Under the pieces are notes generated by a model that saw only the letters and a list, made by a program, of their open reading frames with translations, was not told the origin of the DNA and searched no databases. Of a stretch of DNA of 64,000 nt, positions 6,609-56,685 are shown one piece after another. The position numbers and the translations under genes are program-made. The stretch comes from Alphaproteobacteria bacterium (GTDB lineage: Bacteria; Pseudomonadota; Alphaproteobacteria; UBA828). Every line of letters starts with the position of its first letter. Positions within the stretch are counted from its first letter, which is position 1. The stretch spans positions 64,001-128,000 of the forward strand of contig CAXXVO010000012.1 in NCBI GenBank assembly GCA_963422645.2, in the 5' to 3' direction.

Positions 6609-6742
6609 CTACGCCTCGCCGTCGTCGGCGTCCTCGTCCTGCGGGGGCTCGCGGAAGGCGTCTTCTTCGGCCCGTCCGGCGGCGTCTTCGCGCGCCGCCT
6701 CGAGTTCGGCGTCGGCGTCGATCTCGACGCCGAGGCGCCCGG
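6609..6742 (-). pseudogene. C-terminal remnant of probable phage portal protein
   Basis: GRLGVEIDADAELEAARED tail directly upstream of gpF; 5' part replaced by IS-like sequence. Confidence 0.55.
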
Positions 6743-6892
6743 TGAGCGCGCGCGGTCTTTCAGCGGGGATCGGGGCCTGATCCGCTCGGATTTGTTGAGG
6801 TTTTGGGGCGGGTGCCCCTCGGCGAACTTGCAAGAAGTTCGCCGGGGGGCTTTGTCTCGTGGTGACGGTCACAATCGCCAGAGACGGCCCCA

Positions 6893-7510
6893 ATGTCGCA
6901 CAACATTTTCCGCCACTCCATGCTTTGCAACGCCCTGGTCTGGGCCTGGCTGCGCGAGGTCGATGAGGCCGAGGCGGCGCGCTGCCGCGAGGCGGGCTGC
7001 CGACACTGCCCCGGCAAGCTGCACAGCGCGACGTATCCGCGCAAGCCGTACGGTCTGGCAGCCGAGTTGAGGGAAGAGGGCACGCGGCGGTTCAGCTTCT
7101 GCTGCGCGGATTGCCGCCTGCGAGCGACCCCACCATCGGTACGATTCTTCGGGCGCCGCTTTTATCTGGGCGCCCTGTTCGTTCTGTTGAGTGCACTGGT
7201 TCTGAGAGGCGGGGTGCGGTTGCAGACGATCAAGCGGAAGTGGGGGGTCTCGGTCGCCACACTGCGCCGCTGGCGGAAGTGGTGGCTGGAGGCGTTCCCG
7301 GCGACGGAGCCCTGGGGAGCGAAGCGTGGCGAACTGGTGATGCCACCCGAGGAGGTGCCGCTGCTCTTCGTGCTGCGGCAGATGCGGGGCGGACGCTTCG
7401 GTGAGCGTCTGTTCCTGAGCCTGATCTGGTTCAAGCCGTGGACGGGCTATTGCGGGCTCGGCGATGGCTCGGCGCCGCCCGCAGAAAGTGTTCCTGTCAC
7501 GCCCGGATAG
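6893..7510 (+). CDS. Cys-rich (CxxC) plus HTH accessory protein of the transposon
   Basis: CRHCPGKLH, FSFCCADCRLRATPPSVRF, TLRRWRKWW. Confidence 0.75.
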   Translation: MSHNIFRHSMLCNALVWAWLREVDEAEAARCREAGCRHCPGKLHSATYPRKPYGLAAELREEGTRRFSFCCADCRLRATPPSVRFFGRRFYLGALFVLLSALVLRGGVRLQTIKRKWGVSVATLRRWRKWWLEAFPATEPWGAKRGELVMPPEEVPLLFVLRQMRGGRFGERLFLSLIWFKPWTGYCGLGDGSAPPAESVPVTPG

Positions 7511-7559
7511 GGCGTTCTACATGGGCATCTCTCCGATGCGGCGAGGGAGGGATGCCGGA

Positions 7560-9035
7560 ATGGACAAGGACGACGCGGGCGCCAGGCGCGAGAAGTGGGC
7601 CCGGCTGCGCTTTGCGGTGGTGGGGCCGCTTCTGGCTTCACCGCCGCCTGCAGGCCAGCTGGGGGCCGAGTTCGAGCGTCTGTCGCAGCGCGACTGGGAG
7701 CACCCGTCGGGCAAGGGGCCGGTGCGCTTTGCGGCCTCGACGATCGAGCGCTGGTACTACCGGGCGCGGGCAGAGGAGCAGGACCCGGTCAAGGCGCTGC
7801 GCCGGAAGCCTCGGACCGACGTCGGCCGCGAGCGGTCCATGTCGGCGGGGCTGATCGCGGCGCTGCGCGAGCAGTACCGGGTCCATCCCTCGTGGGCGGC
7901 GCAGCTCCACTACGAGACCCTCAAGGCTCATGTTGCGACCCATCCCGAGCTCGGCCCGATGCCGTCCTACGCGACGCTGACGCGGGCGATGCGCAATCGC
8001 GGCCTGGTGCGCGAGCGCCCCAGGAAGTGGCACGAGGGTGAGGACAAGCCGGCGGTCGAAGCCCGCGAGGTCCTTAGCTACGAGGTGTCTCGCAGTCACG
8101 CGCTGTGGCACGGGGACTTCCACCACGGCAAGCGCCGCGTGCTGACGGCGTCGGGCGAATGGCAGACGCCCATCCTGCTCGGCTTCCTCGACGACCACTC
8201 CAGGCTTGGCTGCCACCTGCAGTGGTACCTGGAGGAGACCGCCGAGGTCTTCGTCCACGGGCTCTGTCAGGCCTTCATGAAGAGGGACTTGCCCAGGTCC
8301 CTGCTGACCGACAACGGCGGGCCGATGACGGCGGGCGAGGTCGAGGAGGGCTTGCACCGCCTCGGCATCGTGGGGGCCACGACACTCGCTTACAGCCCCC
8401 ATCAAAATGGAAAAATCGAGTCGTTCTGGGGCACGGTCGAGGGCCGCCTGATGGCTCAGCTCGAAGGCGTCGACGCGCTCACCCTGAAGATGCTCAACGA
8501 CGCCACCATAGCCTGGCTGGAGCAGGACTACCATCGGCGGGTGCACCGCGAGCTCGGCATGACGCCGCATGAACGCCTCGCCGGGAGCGTCAAGGCATCG
8601 AGGCCCTGCCCCGCCTCGGACGAGCTCAAGGCGGCCTTCCGCATCGCCAGGAAGCGCACGCTCAGGCGCTCGGACGGCACCGTCTCGGTCGAGGGCATCC
8701 GCTACCAGGTGCCACAGCCGTGGCGCCACCTGAGGACGCTCTGGGTCCGCTATGCGCGCTGGGACCTCAGCGGCGTCGATCTGGTGGAAGGCCGAAGCGG
8801 CGAGCGGCTGTGCACGCTGTACCCCCTCGACAAGCGCGGCAACGCCGATGGCGTCCGCCGTCCTGCGAGACCCGGCAGCGACCATGGCGGCGCCAGCGCG
8901 GGCGTCGGCGAACTTCCGCCGCTGCTCAAGGGCGTGCTCGACGCCCAGGCCGCAACAGGCCTGCCGCCGGCCTGGGTACCCCATAACAAGACGCCCGGTC
9001 CGGGCGAGGACGACGATCAGGGAGATCCGTCATGA
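7560..9035 (+). CDS. DDE integrase/transposase (rve, Mu-transposase-like C-terminus)
   Basis: LWHGDFHH, LTDNG, NGKIESFW catalytic D-D-E. Confidence 0.9.
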   Translation: MDKDDAGARREKWARLRFAVVGPLLASPPPAGQLGAEFERLSQRDWEHPSGKGPVRFAASTIERWYYRARAEEQDPVKALRRKPRTDVGRERSMSAGLIAALREQYRVHPSWAAQLHYETLKAHVATHPELGPMPSYATLTRAMRNRGLVRERPRKWHEGEDKPAVEAREVLSYEVSRSHALWHGDFHHGKRRVLTASGEWQTPILLGFLDDHSRLGCHLQWYLEETAEVFVHGLCQAFMKRDLPRSLLTDNGGPMTAGEVEEGLHRLGIVGATTLAYSPHQNGKIESFWGTVEGRLMAQLEGVDALTLKMLNDATIAWLEQDYHRRVHRELGMTPHERLAGSVKASRPCPASDELKAAFRIARKRTLRRSDGTVSVEGIRYQVPQPWRHLRTLWVRYARWDLSGVDLVEGRSGERLCTLYPLDKRGNADGVRRPARPGSDHGGASAGVGELPPLLKGVLDAQAATGLPPAWVPHNKTPGPGEDDDQGDPS

Positions 9036-9568
9036 ACCGCGAGCTGCTCACCTTCTACGGGCTCAAATGGAACCCCTTCGCCACCGACCTTCCGGTCGAC
9101 AGCCTCATGGTGAGCCCCGCCGTCGACAGCTTCTGCCTCAGAATCGAGCATCATCTTGTGCGCCAGGGCGGCTTCGCGTTGATCGCCGGCGAGCCCGGCA
9201 CCGGAAAGAGCGTGGCGTTGCGCGTGCTCGCCGACCGCCTCGGCCGCTCGGACGGGCTCAGGGTCTGTGCCATCACCCACCCCTCTTCCAGGCTGTCCGA
9301 CTTCTACCGCGAGATCGGCGGGATGTTCGGCGTCGACCTGATGTACAACAACCGCTGGGCCAGCTTCAAAAACCTGCGCGAGCGATGGCTCACCCATGTC
9401 GACGACACCCGCATGCGGCCCGTGGTGCTCATCGACGAGGCCCAGGAGCTGCTGCCCTCGGTGATCTCCGAGATCCGCCTGCTGGCGTCCACCGACTTCG
9501 ACTCGCGCGCCATCCTCTCGGTCGTCTTCGCCGGCGACAGCCGCCTGATCGACAGGCTCCGCCAGCCC
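9032..9568 (+). pseudogene. ExeA-family AAA ATPase, truncated
   Basis: Walker A GEPGTGKS, Walker B VLIDEAQ; plausible sequence ends after RLRQP. Confidence 0.8.
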
Positions 9569-10875: not shown

Positions 10876-10926
10876 CCGCAACATGGTGCGGTGGAGGGCG
10901 CGGGGCTGCCGCGTCAGCATCGCGGC
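10876..10926 (+). promoter_or_regulatory. Palindromic site CCGCAACATGGTGCGG plus candidate -10 (CAGCAT) 6 nt before ATG
   Basis: Same layout at 29557 and 55847(-). Confidence 0.65.
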
Positions 10927-11640
10927 ATGCAAAACCTGAACCGACCCATCAGAATCGGCGGGCGCTCCTCCATCGACCGCCTGCCGTCCAAACTCCGCGA
11001 GGCCGTCGATCAAGCCATCGCGGACGGCGCCACCATCGACGACATAACCGCCCTCATCCGGGCCGAGGGCGGCTCCTGCTCGCGTTCGGCCGTCGGCCGC
11101 TATTCCAAGAATATGCGCGCCCTGATCCGCGAACAGCAGGAGTTCGACCGCGCGATGAGGATCTGGGTGCGGGAACTCGGCGAGCGCGCGGAAGGCCGCG
11201 CCGGGCTTATCCTGATCGAGACCCTGCGGACGATGGTGCTCTCCAGCATGGCCGAACTCAGCCAACGCGGAGAGCCTGCGCCCATGCGAGAACTTGCCCG
11301 CCTCGCCCTCACCCTCAAGCGCATCGAAGGCACCGACAAGCTTCGCCTCGAGCGGGAGCGCACGACGGCAAAGCCGGCACCCGTCGGCGGGGCCAAGCCC
11401 CAGGGCGGCCTCTCGCCGGAGACCGCCGCCGCCATCCGCGAGGTCGTGGAGGGCCGGCCCGAGCCGCCCGACCGCACCCTCACGTCGGTGCCGGTCGATG
11501 CCTGGGCGCCTGCGAGTTCCCGGCCATCCAGCTTAATCCCACCTGATCCCGGACAGAAATTCCCGGTTCGCTCGGGGCGGAGGGCGGCGGTGCGGCGCAA
11601 CTCTGCCGCAAGCCCGGATCAGGCGTCCGGCAGCCGGTAA
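10927..11640 (+). CDS. DUF3486 / Mu gp27-like protein (putative small-terminase-like)
   Basis: GRSSIDRLPSKLREAVD...SRSAVGRY N-terminal HTH typical of DUF3486. Confidence 0.8.
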   Translation: MQNLNRPIRIGGRSSIDRLPSKLREAVDQAIADGATIDDITALIRAEGGSCSRSAVGRYSKNMRALIREQQEFDRAMRIWVRELGERAEGRAGLILIETLRTMVLSSMAELSQRGEPAPMRELARLALTLKRIEGTDKLRLERERTTAKPAPVGGAKPQGGLSPETAAAIREVVEGRPEPPDRTLTSVPVDAWAPASSRPSSLIPPDPGQKFPVRSGRRAAVRRNSAASPDQASGSR

Positions 11641-29556: not shown

Positions 29557-29800
29557 CCGGAACATGGTGCGGTGCACAGCGCACGCCGCCAGCCTCAGTG
29601 TCGCGCCATGAGGCACAAGAGAGAGCGGGCCGAGGCAGGCGGAGCCGGCATGAGCGGGAGCTCGTCGCTGGGGCGGCTGCGTCCCGCACTTCGCTCTAAC
29701 GCCGTCGACGCCCCTATCAAGGACAGCGGCGGCGGCGACTCGGGACTCCCGCTTATCTCGCCAAATCCCGGCGAATCCCGCAGAAGAAATTGTGTCGCCG
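29557..29800 (+). pseudogene. Internally deleted DUF3486-like cassette with palindromic upstream site
   Basis: CCGGAACATGGTGCGG 35 nt before ATG 29608; MSGSSSLGRLRPALR resembles GGRSSIDRLPSKLR. Confidence 0.55.
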
Positions 29801-54350: not shown

Positions 54351-54426
54351 GTCCCCATCGTCTAGTGGCCTAGGACACCGGCCTCTCACGCCGGAAACGG
54401 GGGTTCGAGTCCCCCTGGGGACGCCA
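54351..54426 (+). tRNA. tRNA-Glu (CTC)
   Basis: GTCCCCA/TGGGGAC acceptor stem, CCGGC-CTCTCAC-GCCGG anticodon arm, GTTCGAG, CCA end. Confidence 0.97.
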
Positions 54427-54492: not shown

Positions 54493-54728
54493 GCGCCCGC
54501 CCTTGAGGGACATGATTAGGGGGGTAAAGAGGGCCGGACCGCAGGTCCGGAGCGCGCGACTGCGCGCCGCGCCGAATGGCGCGTAGGCAAGCGAACGGAG
54601 TGAGCGCCCGCCGTCGAGGGAAATGAATAAGGGTAAAGAGAACCGGACCGCAGGTCCGAAGCGCGCGCCTGCGCGCCGCGCCGAATGGCGCGTAGGCAAG
54701 CGAGCGGAGCGCGCGCCCGCCGTCGAGG
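54493..54728. repeat. Tandem ~110-bp structured repeat (2 units plus a partial)
   Basis: Units start 54493, 54604, 54713; hairpin CGGACCGCAGGTCCG; shared GCGCCGAATGGCGCGTAGGCAAGCGA. Confidence 0.85.
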
Positions 54729-54781
54729 TTTAAAAAAACTAGCGCCCGGCTACGGCCGATAGGTCGATCCCGCCCCGTCCC

Positions 54782-55795
54782 TCACCATGCCGAGGGGTCG
54801 AGGGGAATCTCCGGTGGCCACAACTCGCCGCCCCAGGCCCAGCGATTGGGGCGCGCGATATGCGGAACGTCGTCCGCGTCCTGCGCTCTGCGCGCGTGGC
54901 CGACATCGTGCGCTCTGCGCGCGTGGCCCATATCCTGTTCTTCGCACGCAGCTCCCGCGTCGGGGGCCTCTCGTGCGTCCTCCGGGTCGCGCTCTTCATG
55001 CGCGTCTTCGGAGAGATGCGCGTCCCGCGCGCCGCCCCCATCGTGCGCTCCGCGCACGTGGCCCACATCGTGCGCTTCCGGCTCTCCCCAGGCGAAATGC
55101 CCGGCGCTCGAGTCCGGCGATGGCTCCGGCGGGGCGGCCTCGGGCCCGGCAGGCGCGTTGGCATCCGGCCAGGCCTCCCACGGCTTCGAGCCGAGGCGCT
55201 CGGGGTGGAACCCCGCCTTGATGGCCGGGCCGAGGAGGGCCCTCATTTCCTGCGTGGAAGGGGGCTTGCGCGGGGCCTGAGGAGCGGCGCTCTCGGCCGC
55301 CGTCCGCTCCCCTTTGAGGCGGTGCTTGTCGACGACTTCGATGCGGTGGAGCGCAAGCGCAAGACACGCGATCTCGTCCGGCGAAGGCGGCTCCTCGCGC
55401 GCGGCGAGCTCGCCCATCTTGAGCAGCAAGAGCGACCGCACGCCCTCGACGGCGAGGCGTGCGGTGTGATTCTCTCTACCGGGTCCCTGCCTCTCCGCCC
55501 ATTCCGCGGCTTGGGCGCTGACCTCGCGCTGCAGGTCGATCAGGCCGTGAATGTGTGCGGTGAAGAAGTCGTCGGCGGAATCCGAGCTCTCACCCTCGTG
55601 CGGATCCGCGCGGAGGAACGCGGTCGGGCGAATACTTGCCGCGATTGCGTCGACGGCAGCACCGTCTTCGATCTCTGCCGCAGCGCCCTCCCGGCCCGCG
55701 TCCTGCGCCGGCTCGCCCGCCGAGCCCCCGCCCGTCTCGCCCCTGCCGCCCTGTCGCCTCATCATGCCCCGCCGCCTGCGTCGCTCGCGATTCAT
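54782..55795 (-). CDS. Divergent DUF3486-like protein with His-rich repeats
   Basis: MGELAAREEP..EIACLALALHRIEVVDKHRLKGER aligns with 10927 MAELSQRGEP..ELARLALTLKRIEGTDKLRLERER. Confidence 0.7.
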   Translation of the reverse strand: MNRERRRRRGMMRRQGGRGETGGGSAGEPAQDAGREGAAAEIEDGAAVDAIAASIRPTAFLRADPHEGESSDSADDFFTAHIHGLIDLQREVSAQAAEWAERQGPGRENHTARLAVEGVRSLLLLKMGELAAREEPPSPDEIACLALALHRIEVVDKHRLKGERTAAESAAPQAPRKPPSTQEMRALLGPAIKAGFHPERLGSKPWEAWPDANAPAGPEAAPPEPSPDSSAGHFAWGEPEAHDVGHVRGAHDGGGARDAHLSEDAHEERDPEDAREAPDAGAACEEQDMGHARRAHDVGHARRAQDADDVPHIARPNRWAWGGELWPPEIPLDPSAW

Positions 55796-55847
55796 GCCGC
55801 GATCCTGACGCGTCCGCCTCCGCCCTGTGCACCGCACCATGGTGCGG
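55796..55847 (-). promoter_or_regulatory. Perfect palindrome CCGCACCATGGTGCGG plus candidate -10 (CAGGAT)
   Basis: 55832-55847, 36 nt from ATG 55795. Confidence 0.65.
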
Positions 55848-55850
55848 GGG

Positions 55851-55922
55851 GTCGCTCGCGCCCGAAGGGTCGCGAGCGCGAAACAAGTCGCTCGCGCCCG
55901 AAGGCTCGCGAGCGCGAAACAC
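55851..55922. repeat. Two tandem 36-bp hairpin units
   Basis: GTCGCTCGCGCCCGAAGG(G/C)TCGCGAGCGCGAAACA twice. Confidence 0.85.
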
Positions 55923-55955
55923 AAAAGCCGCGGGTCGCGCACGCCCCCACCACAG

Positions 55956-56066: not shown

Positions 56067-56360
56067 CTACGGCAGGGTTTCGAAAAGATCGTCCCAATTG
56101 GGGTTCTGTTTGCGGATGAGTCTGACCTTCCAGGCGCGCGGCCAGTGCTTCAAGGTCCGCTCTCGCTGAATGGCTGCGGCGATTTCCTCGTGCCGTTCCG
56201 CGTAGACAAGCCGGGTCAGGTCGTACCGCTTGGTGAACCCTTCAAGCAGTCCTTCGCGATGTTCCCACGCCCTGCGCACGATGTTGCTGGTCATGCCGAG
56301 ATAGAGCGTGCCGTTGGGTCGATTGGTCATGATGTAGACCCAGCCCGCGCCCTTTCTCAT
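56067..56360 (-). CDS. Small GIY-YIG nuclease
   Basis: WVYIMTNRPNGTLYLGMTS, AIQRERTLKHWPRAWK..NPNWDDL. Confidence 0.92.
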   Translation of the reverse strand: MRKGAGWVYIMTNRPNGTLYLGMTSNIVRRAWEHREGLLEGFTKRYDLTRLVYAERHEEIAAAIQRERTLKHWPRAWKVRLIRKQNPNWDDLFETLP

Positions 56361-56373
56361 GTCCTTATGCTGC

Positions 56374-56410
56374 AAGCCGTGGATGCCCGGAACAAGTCCG
56401 GGCATGACGA
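56374..56410 (-). repeat. Inverted REP copy
   Basis: 36/37 identical to revcomp of 56021-56057. Confidence 0.9.
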
Positions 56411-56439
56411 TGCAAGGAACCGGCCTTGCGGATGCGGGC

Positions 56440-56685
56440 ATCATGGCGAAGCGCGCCATGCGGGAGCCCGGCGAGATGTGCCCGACGCCCGCCCACGACA
56501 TGCCGACCGAGACGATCCGGGCCCTCCGCCCGCACGAGACCGCCAGTCAAGCGGTGCTCGCGCGTCACCCGAACGTGACCACGAGACTGGTGAGCCAGCT
56601 GGAGCGGGGCGAGAAACGCCCTCGCGGCGCCTCTCTCAAGCTCCTGACCCTGGTGGCGAAGAGGGGCCTCAGCGCGGTCGTGTGA
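56440..56685 (+). pseudogene. XRE-HTH antitoxin-like (HigA-type), degenerate
   Basis: SQAVLAR..VSQLERGEKRPRGASLKLL; no upstream toxin. Confidence 0.7.

Follow-up and report, generated by a model that had tools for sequence, protein, structure and literature searches.

Dispersed DUF3486 cassettes sharing a promoter-like module in an alphaproteobacterial genus: candidate small terminase and binding-site units tied to a conserved capsid cluster

Why should small-terminase-like genes of the DUF3486 (Mu gp27) family stand singly in a bacterial chromosome, each behind a copy of the same palindrome and none beside a large terminase gene? The question is raised by a 64,000-nucleotide stretch of alphaproteobacterial DNA (the window; positions 64,001 to 128,000 of contig CAXXVO010000012.1, assembly GCA_963422645.2), in which an original prediction, made from the sequence alone, had noticed three such loci and had proposed them as cassettes switched on by a phage late activator. 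The genome carrying the window (23 contigs, 5.9 Mb, GC 67%) is here called G000 and the window is its C13:64001-128000; coordinates given without a contig are window positions. The evidence is read, with a probability of roughly one half, as describing co-regulated units of a small terminase gene (terS) and its binding site, multiplied in the manner of miniature inverted-repeat transposable elements (MITEs) and tied to a conserved capsid gene cluster. It suggests that the cassettes steer where DNA is loaded into virus-like particles. Across the genus the cassettes consist of a promoter-like module, a terS-like gene of the DUF3486/Mu gp27 type (whole in a few copies and deleted in most), and an array of short phased repeats, or iterons.

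At each of the three loci a 16-bp palindrome, CCGCACCATGGTGCGG, is matched with 0-2 mismatches and is followed by a spacer and an ATG; the distance from palindrome to ATG is 35, 35 and 36 nt at loci 1, 2 and 3 (ATGs at 10927, 29608 and 55795), a CAGnnT hexamer lies 6 nt before the ATG, and no Shine-Dalgarno sequence is found at any of the three (Table 1). This common layout is as the original prediction had described it and can be read directly in the sequence, and the two loci that it had placed between convergent host genes are loci 1 and 2. A pattern search of the window allowing up to 3 mismatches returned 4 matches against 0.95 expected, a number reached in 1 of 100 shuffles; the fourth match (19327, 3 mismatches) lacks the extended motif. 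A profile of the extended module (nhmmer) scores loci 1, 2 and 3 at E 5e-16, 2e-18 and 2e-14, the window loci being among the seeds of that profile. The further claim, that all three loci carry DUF3486-related open reading frames (ORFs), is not borne out, locus 1 alone being a clear case. Its protein matches phrog_426 'terminase small subunit' (E 3e-28) and also PF11985 (Phage_Mu_Gp27, DUF3486), at 80.8 bits against a gathering cut-off of 28. With 14.7 bits locus 3 stays under that cut-off, but it is a divergent paralogue of locus 1 (BLASTP E 4e-19, 32% over 215 aa). The locus 2 frame, which overlaps scpB of the opposite strand, has no Pfam match and no BLASTP similarity (E 27), and on that value a by-eye likeness of its N-terminal codons to a DUF3486 N-terminus was dropped. 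Loci 1 and 3 have no match in NCBIfam, and Rfam over the window gave only a tRNA and thus no RNA family for the cassettes.

The three loci are members of a much larger family. Genome-wide the palindrome occurs 47 times with up to 2 mismatches, and most of these sites share about 36 further bases and the ATG. The 52-nt promoter-like module so defined is the 16-bp palindrome plus a 35-nt spacer that ends in CAGCAT and 6 nt, with the ATG following; an nhmmer profile of this 5' module, built from 31 copies of the genome and applied at E<=1e-5, finds 40 copies, six of which retain a DUF3486-like ORF. The original prediction had the 5' part of the layout right but overlooked a shared 3' iteron module and the short copies that carry it. 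A 3' module is recognisable by regular expression in 29 of the 40, and 26 of these 29 measure 141-339 bp from palindrome to 3' end. It comes in two types: type A has one to seven ATCCCACTT units, then ATCCCGGCGAATCCCGCC and an A/T run, and type B has GAGCCACyTT units followed by GAGCCGGAATAAGCC repeats, the units being phased 9-10 nt apart. Cassettes that bear an ORF hold just one, of 0.7-1.1 kb, between promoter module and iterons; integrase, replication and regulatory genes were found within none of them. Searched for by itself with up to 3 mismatches, the type-A 3' pattern gives 52 hits (3 for a reversed-pattern control), 18 of them downstream of a detected 5' module; the two modules are linked as a rule, though with exceptions. 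Where a gene lies within 400 bp upstream, 21 of 27 copies follow the 3' end of a co-directional gene, as placed by a crude gene caller, and the short copies seem by eye to fall into subfamilies of like internal layout. The best pair among the full-length copies of this genome is 85% identical, and none is near-identical. With 40 5' modules here and 8-17 DUF3486 hits per genome in five relatives, the expectation of many more copies beyond the window is borne out.

Not one of the six cassette-type copies adjoins a large terminase gene (terL). Three further DUF3486 genes do lie beside or near terL, as found with a hidden Markov model (C6:359225, C13:168678, C9:184870); these are of prophage type, and none of the three has the 5' module. 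A terL family of three copies (family 1) had been thought to lack a terS, but its C6 copy is directly preceded by DUF3486, and these are ordinary prophage-type pairs without the motif.

The same division holds in relatives. Database homologues of the locus 1 protein number 788 at E<=1e-3; among the matches listed, which are the best 120 of the 788, identity is 63-94%, all have PF11985 and many lie on megabase contigs. Metagenome-assembled genomes named 'Rhodospirillales bacterium' or 'Alphaproteobacteria bacterium' contain several cassette copies each, and the 5' module stands directly upstream of the gene, with ATCCC-type repeats downstream, at 16 of the 16 evaluable loci in them, one more locus being cut by a contig end. 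When 36 cassette loci from six genomes were fetched (30 from relatives and 6 from this genome), all had the 5' module at fixed spacing and 33 had a start codon at model position 61+-1; CAGCAT is nearly invariant across 47 full-length copies. Of 20 relatives, 12 belong to the genus and 8 do not; additional matches confined to the 5' module turn up in 11 of the former and in none of the latter. The module is absent from a prophage in G002 (C1:208 kb) and from a Defluviicoccus locus (L028) that is an ordinary Mu-like gp27-terL pair. Among DUF3486 genes the promoter-like module goes exclusively with the cassette type, not the prophage type, and the link between motif and DUF3486 that had been foreseen is found at 36 of 36 cassette loci as against 0 of 3 prophage-type genes beside terL in this genome.

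What the module may do is suggested by its geometry. If the spacer is 35 nt and the A of the ATG is taken as +1, the palindrome occupies -51..-36, with its centre at -43.5, and CAGCAT occupies -12..-7. No promoter was found at locus 1 in a scan with the sigma-70 consensus, and the palindrome does not seem to fit the LexA, CtrA or sigma-54 consensus. Mu late promoters, as described in PMC2582627, have -10 hexamers, no typical -35 element, and a 16-bp imperfect dyad centred at -43.5 to which a dimer of the C protein binds. The geometry of the module would equal that of these C-dependent promoters if transcription starts at the ATG. On that condition the likeness to Plys, PI, PP and Pmom, as presented in PMC2582627, covers the 16-bp dyad at -43.5, the recognisable -10 and the want of a -35; it extends to the arrangement of several head or packaging operons with one site each, one of them ahead of a protease (gene I-like) operon as Mu PI is. 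Unlike the Mu promoters, the cassette dyad is GC-rich and a perfect palindrome, the start site is assumed, and the transcript would be leaderless; also unlike Mu, the module stands at about 40 chromosomal sites. In cases where the main gene has a later start, the fixed ATG is kept and begins a short ORF; by eye, the stop of this ORF overlaps the start codon of the protease, terL or portal gene. A leaderless mRNA with the ATG as its 5' end would lead one to expect such an arrangement. The original idea of leaderless cassettes under a phage late activator therefore fares unevenly: the Mu C geometry, if the transcript starts at the ATG, and the presence of the motif at late-type operons speak for it, but no Mor/C protein was found above cut-off in 21 genus genomes and the partner is a cluster conserved in the genus, not an incoming prophage.

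In G000 one module copy of that partner (C15:208882) precedes a gene for a head maturation protease (phrog_976), and the next gene encodes a major head protein of Mu type (phrog_1005). Of 21 genus genomes, 17 have this capsid gene, for the most part as a single copy, at 88-97% identity, and the ratio of non-synonymous to synonymous substitution rates (dN/dS) is 0.09-0.13 in all 10 comparisons. The module stands ahead of the protease gene in the five genomes examined of five (G000, G002, G005, G008, G009). In G005, G008 and G009 host genes lie upstream of it, and immediately after it come the genes for protease, scaffold, capsid, neck and major tail protein; the cluster runs on to a short gene resembling a tape measure, an NlpC/P60-like gene and large distal genes. 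G002 has the cluster in one piece (C1:6.6-26.4 kb), with the atp operon next to its end, and the G000 remnant lies by that operon as well. The locations are G000:C15:208882-218200, G002:C1:6600-26400 (L136/L137), G005:C4 (L057), G008:C7 (L059) and G009:C8 (L058). The cluster is inherited vertically, conserved and under purifying selection, and its Mu-type head module joined to tail genes that look RcGTA-like makes it a candidate gene transfer agent (GTA) in its own right.

The module also marks terL and the portal gene. A terL hit was obtained in 16 of 20 genus genomes, with another type only in G006. In G002 terL is preceded, at a distance of about 90 nt, by a module that has diverged but keeps the spacing, and a second module lies before the protease gene; in G011 and G025 the module ATG is itself the start of terL. 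No terS was found between module and terL in these three genomes, and where examined the cluster has none of its own. Another module lies between terL and the next gene in G011, G021 and G025, that gene in G011 being a Mu-type portal (PF06074, E 4e-59). The motif, which according to the original prediction was to be looked for at late genes of intact Mu-like prophages, is present at the terL, portal and protease/capsid operons of the genus-conserved cluster and absent at the prophage-type DUF3486-terL junctions examined. Cassettes and cluster are also missing together: G012, G024 and G028, which lack capsid, terL and PF11985, have 1, 0 and 1 motif hits, as against 31 in G022 and 42 in G005, although since these genomes are kin the co-absence is a pattern and not a test.

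The proteins and the iterons fall into matching subfamilies. Subfamily A, to which locus 1 belongs, pairs with ATCCC iterons. The genes of subfamily B, whose identity to A is about 43%, start at a downstream ATG with GGAGG; this subfamily is followed by type-B G(A/G)GCC arrays in three of three genes, and between A and B all units of an array switch together. Subfamily C comprises locus 3, three other G000 copies and six genes fetched from G004; the helix-turn-helix (HTH) region is degenerate, in several copies interrupted by a hairpin resembling repetitive extragenic palindromic (REP) sequences, and GC-rich repeats of about 21-27 nt replace the iterons. The palindrome module is common to all three subfamilies. 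An AlphaFold2 model of the locus 1 protein, based on 38 homologues (mean predicted local distance difference test score, pLDDT, 65.5), has a three-helix N-terminal domain with an HTH (helices 15-60 at pLDDT above 90), long helices at 53-84, 88-113 and 120-147, then a short helix at 164-175, which is conserved, and finally a disordered tail. The C-terminal helix and a VTSAPVDPW stretch are nearly invariant among the 38 homologues, including the Defluviicoccus gp27 that precedes terL. The protein is thus predicted to follow the small terminase (TerS) plan, an N-terminal HTH DNA-binding domain followed by oligomerisation helices. A fold search of BFVD returned a phage DUF3486 protein as best match (E 1.5e-3), and a sequence search of the PDB gave 0 hits.

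From these features we infer a working scheme. The ATG of the module would be the first codon of a leaderless transcript, and one dimeric activator would bind the palindrome and turn on the cluster and all the cassettes together. The cassette proteins would work as small terminases, each binding its own iterons and bringing in the TerL of the cluster, so that packaging would start at many chromosomal sites; the cassettes themselves multiplied in a MITE-like way. A more ambitious version is offered tentatively, as a possibility that we rather doubt: a Rhodospirillales-like genus would keep a domesticated particle with a Mu head and a GTA tail but without a terS of its own, and dozens of dispersed terS-plus-iteron cassettes, all under the same activator-dependent leaderless promoter, would start packaging as a 'distributed pac' whose subfamilies differ in site specificity.

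That the cassettes have proliferated, with internally deleted copies among them, is seen directly. The site orthologous to locus 2 is filled in G000, G005, G008 and G006 and empty in G004, where there is only a 41-bp spacer with a hairpin; the occupant is a type-A short copy in G005 and G008 and a type-B copy in G006, whose 5' flank is in common with G008, while G003 has other content there. The context of locus 3 differs in G005. With 26 short copies that keep both ends of the longer coding copy, and with a polymorphic insertion site, the family has two traits of MITEs. Terminal inverted repeats were not found, the two cassette ends being unlike each other, and no target duplication is visible at the single empty site (G004, where the flanks have diverged).

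Several results weigh against reading the cassettes as working packaging units. Within-genome copies are 84-95% identical, compared with 67-82% between genomes, in four of five relatives (G004, G006, G008, G009); such likeness points to lineage-specific amplification or gene conversion, and it also fits a selfish, amplifying element. By the Nei-Gojobori method (15 comparisons), the dN/dS of cassette genes is 0.2-0.6 in 13 of 15, moderately below 1, and constraint on them is weaker than on the cluster. In the DUF3486 domain of locus 1 and its G005 orthologue the ratio is 1.2 (4.5 synonymous and 15.5 non-synonymous changes), with 0.67 in the poorly aligned tail; a dN/dS near 1, named beforehand as a sign of decaying debris, is thus seen at locus 1 against G005 only, on 20 substitutions, the other pairs lying at 0.2-0.6. 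About nine good type-A 3' modules stand with no 5' module nearby. The Mor/C family (PF08765) has no match over the cut-off in 21 genus genomes, the best in this genome being at E 0.4. The recognition helix of the HTH is the same in subfamilies A and B and therefore cannot by itself read their differing iterons, subfamily C (including locus 3) has lost it, and the covariation of iterons with protein subfamilies could reflect common descent of whole elements. Foldseek against the PDB returned nothing at E<=1e-3, Sf6 gp1 small terminase ranking 6 and 25 at E 0.8-1.5. Lastly, the cluster is broken in this very genome and Mu-like terS-terL-portal sets of other lineages are duplicated in it: the protease gene is split by an insertion sequence (IS), tail genes are missing, among them the one orthologous to the conserved major tail gene (best match 33%), and the orthologous terL is missing too, the closest terL to that of the G011 cluster being at 68%, as against 94% for the capsid. 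The structural cluster being broken here, the window cassettes are probably what is left of a system that relatives still have intact.

The chief rival to the favoured reading is a selfish mobile element merely descended from an ancestral phage promoter-terS-pac segment, in which the DUF3486-like protein would be a DNA-binding factor for mobility, the iterons and palindrome its cis-acting ends, the short copies non-autonomous derivatives and the phage-type promoter inherited baggage that plays no part in packaging. The two are compatible, and taken as a full explanation the selfish element is considered unlikely, though not lightly set aside. It accounts well for short copies that have lost the middle and retained both end modules, for their apparent subfamilies, for copies that are closest to each other within G004, G006, G008 and G009, for filled and empty orthologous sites with type-A and type-B elements at the same intergenic site in different genomes, for the changed context of locus 3 in G005, and for the placement of 21 of 27 copies just after co-directional gene ends, as far as the crude gene caller can tell. 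However, the protein has no catalytic domain, terminal inverted repeats are lacking as is a target duplication at the one empty site, this genome has no near-identical pair (85% for the best full-length pair), and the presence of the module at terL, portal and protease operons, together with the co-absence of cassettes and cluster, would be left unexplained. Neutral debris, that is, fragments of Mu-like prophages scattered by abundant IS and decaying without function, would suit a genome with hundreds of IS copies and duplicated terL and portal segments, the ratio of about 1.2 at locus 1, the lack of an intact ORF at locus 2 and many other copies, and the broken structural cluster. This is held to be improbable, since random decay would not retain both the 5' and 3' modules in 26 short copies, nor conserve module, spacing and CAGCAT at 36 of 36 loci in six genomes; most gene pairs have a dN/dS of 0.2-0.6, and the 788 homologues (the 120 listed being at 63-94%, all with PF11985) and the 8-17 copies in each relative also speak against it.

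Two further readings assign the protein another task. The original prediction had put first a defence decoy, in which terS look-alikes would poison or misdirect the packaging motor of an infecting Mu-like phage. Small-terminase-like proteins under a late-type promoter would serve such an end, and true Mu-like prophages with DUF3486-terL pairs do occur in the genus, but the idea gained no support and is thought very improbable: loci 1 and 3 match none of 5027 PADLOC models, the module is absent at the true prophage-type DUF3486-terL junctions examined, so that an infecting Mu-like phage is not shown to carry a matching activator, a Mor/C gene was not found in the 21 genus genomes, and the module belongs to a resident conserved cluster. 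Alternatively the DUF3486-like protein might not be a terminase subunit at all, and instead be the activator that binds the palindrome, regulating its own gene and switching on the capsid cluster. The predicted N-terminal HTH with long helices suited to dimerisation, an HTH helix identical in the two subfamilies (A and B) that have the palindrome in common, and the failure of the Mor/C search over those genomes to supply another activator would agree with this. It is nevertheless given the least credence of all, as the same helix occurs in ordinary phage gp27 proteins that have no palindrome (L028), subfamily C has kept the promoter without the HTH, and the iteron arrays and conserved C-terminal helix are left unexplained.

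Small terminase genes with the pac site in or adjoining the gene are known from SPP1 (gene 1), P22 (gene 3) and P1 (pacA). The cassettes resemble these in pairing a small protein that has an HTH, and whose family carries the small terminase annotation (phrog_426), with phased short repeats at or after the 3' end of the gene; unlike them, the cassette gene is not beside a large terminase, there are dozens of copies per genome, and the fold match to solved small terminases is non-significant. Phage satellites of the Staphylococcus aureus pathogenicity island and phage-inducible chromosomal island (SaPI/PICI) kind bring their own small terminase, and RinA-type late activators are said to bind upstream of terS. 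A terS gene outside a phage, under a late-type promoter dependent on an activator made elsewhere, is a likeness; unlike SaPI/PICI, the cassette is one ORF with no integrase, replication or repressor genes, appears unable to excise, and has as partner a resident conserved cluster. With MITEs and with REP or bacterial interspersed mosaic element (BIME) repeats the family shares dozens of intergenic copies, 141-339 bp in length, which descend from a longer coding form and for the most part follow gene ends, and orthologous sites both occupied and empty. It is unlike MITEs in that it has no terminal inverted repeats, no target duplication seen and no transposase known, its ends being a promoter-like module and an iteron array. 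Gene transfer agents of the RcGTA type are comparable in having a head-tail cluster present in most of the genus at a fixed site under purifying selection, with some genes of the system elsewhere. GTAs are described in PMC6854486 as packaging without sequence preference. Unlike RcGTA, with its single small terminase, the present system has Mu-type head genes and many dispersed terS-like genes with repeat arrays, and is known here from genes alone.

How gene transfer agents and transducing phages choose their DNA is an open question, and the cassettes, if they are working terS and binding-site units tied to a conserved capsid cluster, would be a second solution to it. There would then be many programmed packaging starts across the chromosome, and palindrome, CAGCAT, leaderless ATG and iterons would together be a signature for finding such systems in genomes. 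Even if the cassettes are selfish, a family of repeats with a late-type promoter of phage kind and a terminase-like gene was not found described in the literature searched (supplements were outside its scope).

Table 1. Features of the three cassette loci in the window (window positions)
Feature	Position	Strand	Evidence
Locus 1 palindrome, 1 mismatch; centre -43.5 if A of ATG is +1	10876..10891	+	pattern search, nhmmer profile
Locus 1 -10-like hexamer CAGCAT, -12..-7 from ATG; then CGCGGC	10915..10920	+	sequence
Locus 1 DUF3486 ORF, subfamily A, 237 aa	10927..11640	+	PF11985 80.8 bits; phrog_426 E 3e-28
Locus 1 degenerate type-A 3' module: three xxTCCC units about 10 nt apart, then GAAATT; inside the ORF 3' end	11532..11566	+	
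Locus 2 palindrome, 2 mismatches	29557..29572	+	pattern search
Locus 2 -10-like hexamer CAGTGT, 6 nt ahead of ATG 29608	29596..29601	+	
Locus 2 body of 236-bp MITE-like short copy, without DUF3486 domain	29608..29792	+	
Locus 2 type-A 3' module: two AATCCCG units, then GAAGAAATTG	29747-29792	+	
Locus 3 palindrome, exact	55832..55847	-	pattern search
Locus 3 -10-like hexamer CAGGAT, 6 nt ahead of ATG 55795	55802..55807	-	
Locus 3 subfamily-C paralogue, 337-aa open frame; DUF3486 central helices kept, N-terminal HTH region degenerate	54782..55795	-	
Locus 3 GC-rich repeat of about 21-27 nt, three copies, in 3' part of frame	54879..55075	-	read by eye

Other repeats and mobile sequences lie among the cassettes. 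A palindrome-like '3' terminal repeat', GACCCTGGTGAGAAGTGCGGG, was considered as the end of the element and was dropped because it occurs in only 7 of 40 cassettes and is part of a separate MITE of about 250 bp. The ends of that MITE read ...GACCGTGGTGAGAAATGCGGGCTAG; there are 49 end matches in the genome, often as inverted pairs about 220 bp apart, examples in G000 being C5:147270/147492, C9:143847/144095 and C10:200406/200628. IS abound in the genome; those of about 1.8, 2.25-2.46 and 3.7 kb form families that each have tens to more than 100 near-identical copies. Genes for an rve transposase and an AAA_22 protein upstream of locus 1 had been taken for Mu A and B, but belong to a truncated copy (window 6739-9568; G000:C13:70739-73568) of a 3.7-kb IS that has more than 20 copies and is unrelated to the cassette. 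Another IS, with the end GTAACTGCCCAGG, sits in at least five copies of the cassette exactly where the 3' module has its A/T-rich end (G000 C7:114312, C10:281928, C8:652455, C9:511778 and C15:344061), which suggests that it prefers this end as a target.

Mu-like segments are repeated in the same genome. A 3.35-kb Mu-type portal segment is present as three copies 95-98% identical (C9:16450-19799, C8:85071-88436, C9:186533-189882) and as fragments; two of the three have IS copies on their flanks and adjoin a terL that is from another lineage and has a DUF3486 gene of its own. At C9:155080-156080 a truncated gene for a P4-type integrase, lower in GC, lies directly upstream of one of three terL copies, which are 76% identical to a Defluviicoccus Mu-like terL and sit within a segment of about 8.5 kb present three times.

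Repeats lie on both sides of locus 3. Its open frame ends some 360 bp away from the tRNA gene of the window (Rfam RF00005, 63 bits; 54351-54423, + strand), and between the two (54500-54740, - strand) a repeat of about 100 nt, TTCCCTCGACGGCGGGCGC ... CGGACCTGCGGTCCGG, stands in two to three tandem copies; it is found also after cassettes of related genomes (L019, L020, L022, L026, L027). Directly upstream of the palindrome (55850-55935, - strand) are tandem GC-rich REP-like hairpins with a stem of about 10 bp and a loop of CTTCGG or TTTCAGG, such as also lie upstream of several other cassettes, and the same type of hairpin is inserted within the HTH-coding region of several G004 subfamily-C genes. 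Just upstream of locus 3 (56067-56501, - strand) is a small gene that by eye is GIY-YIG-like and is multicopy in relatives (84-86% in G005 and G009).

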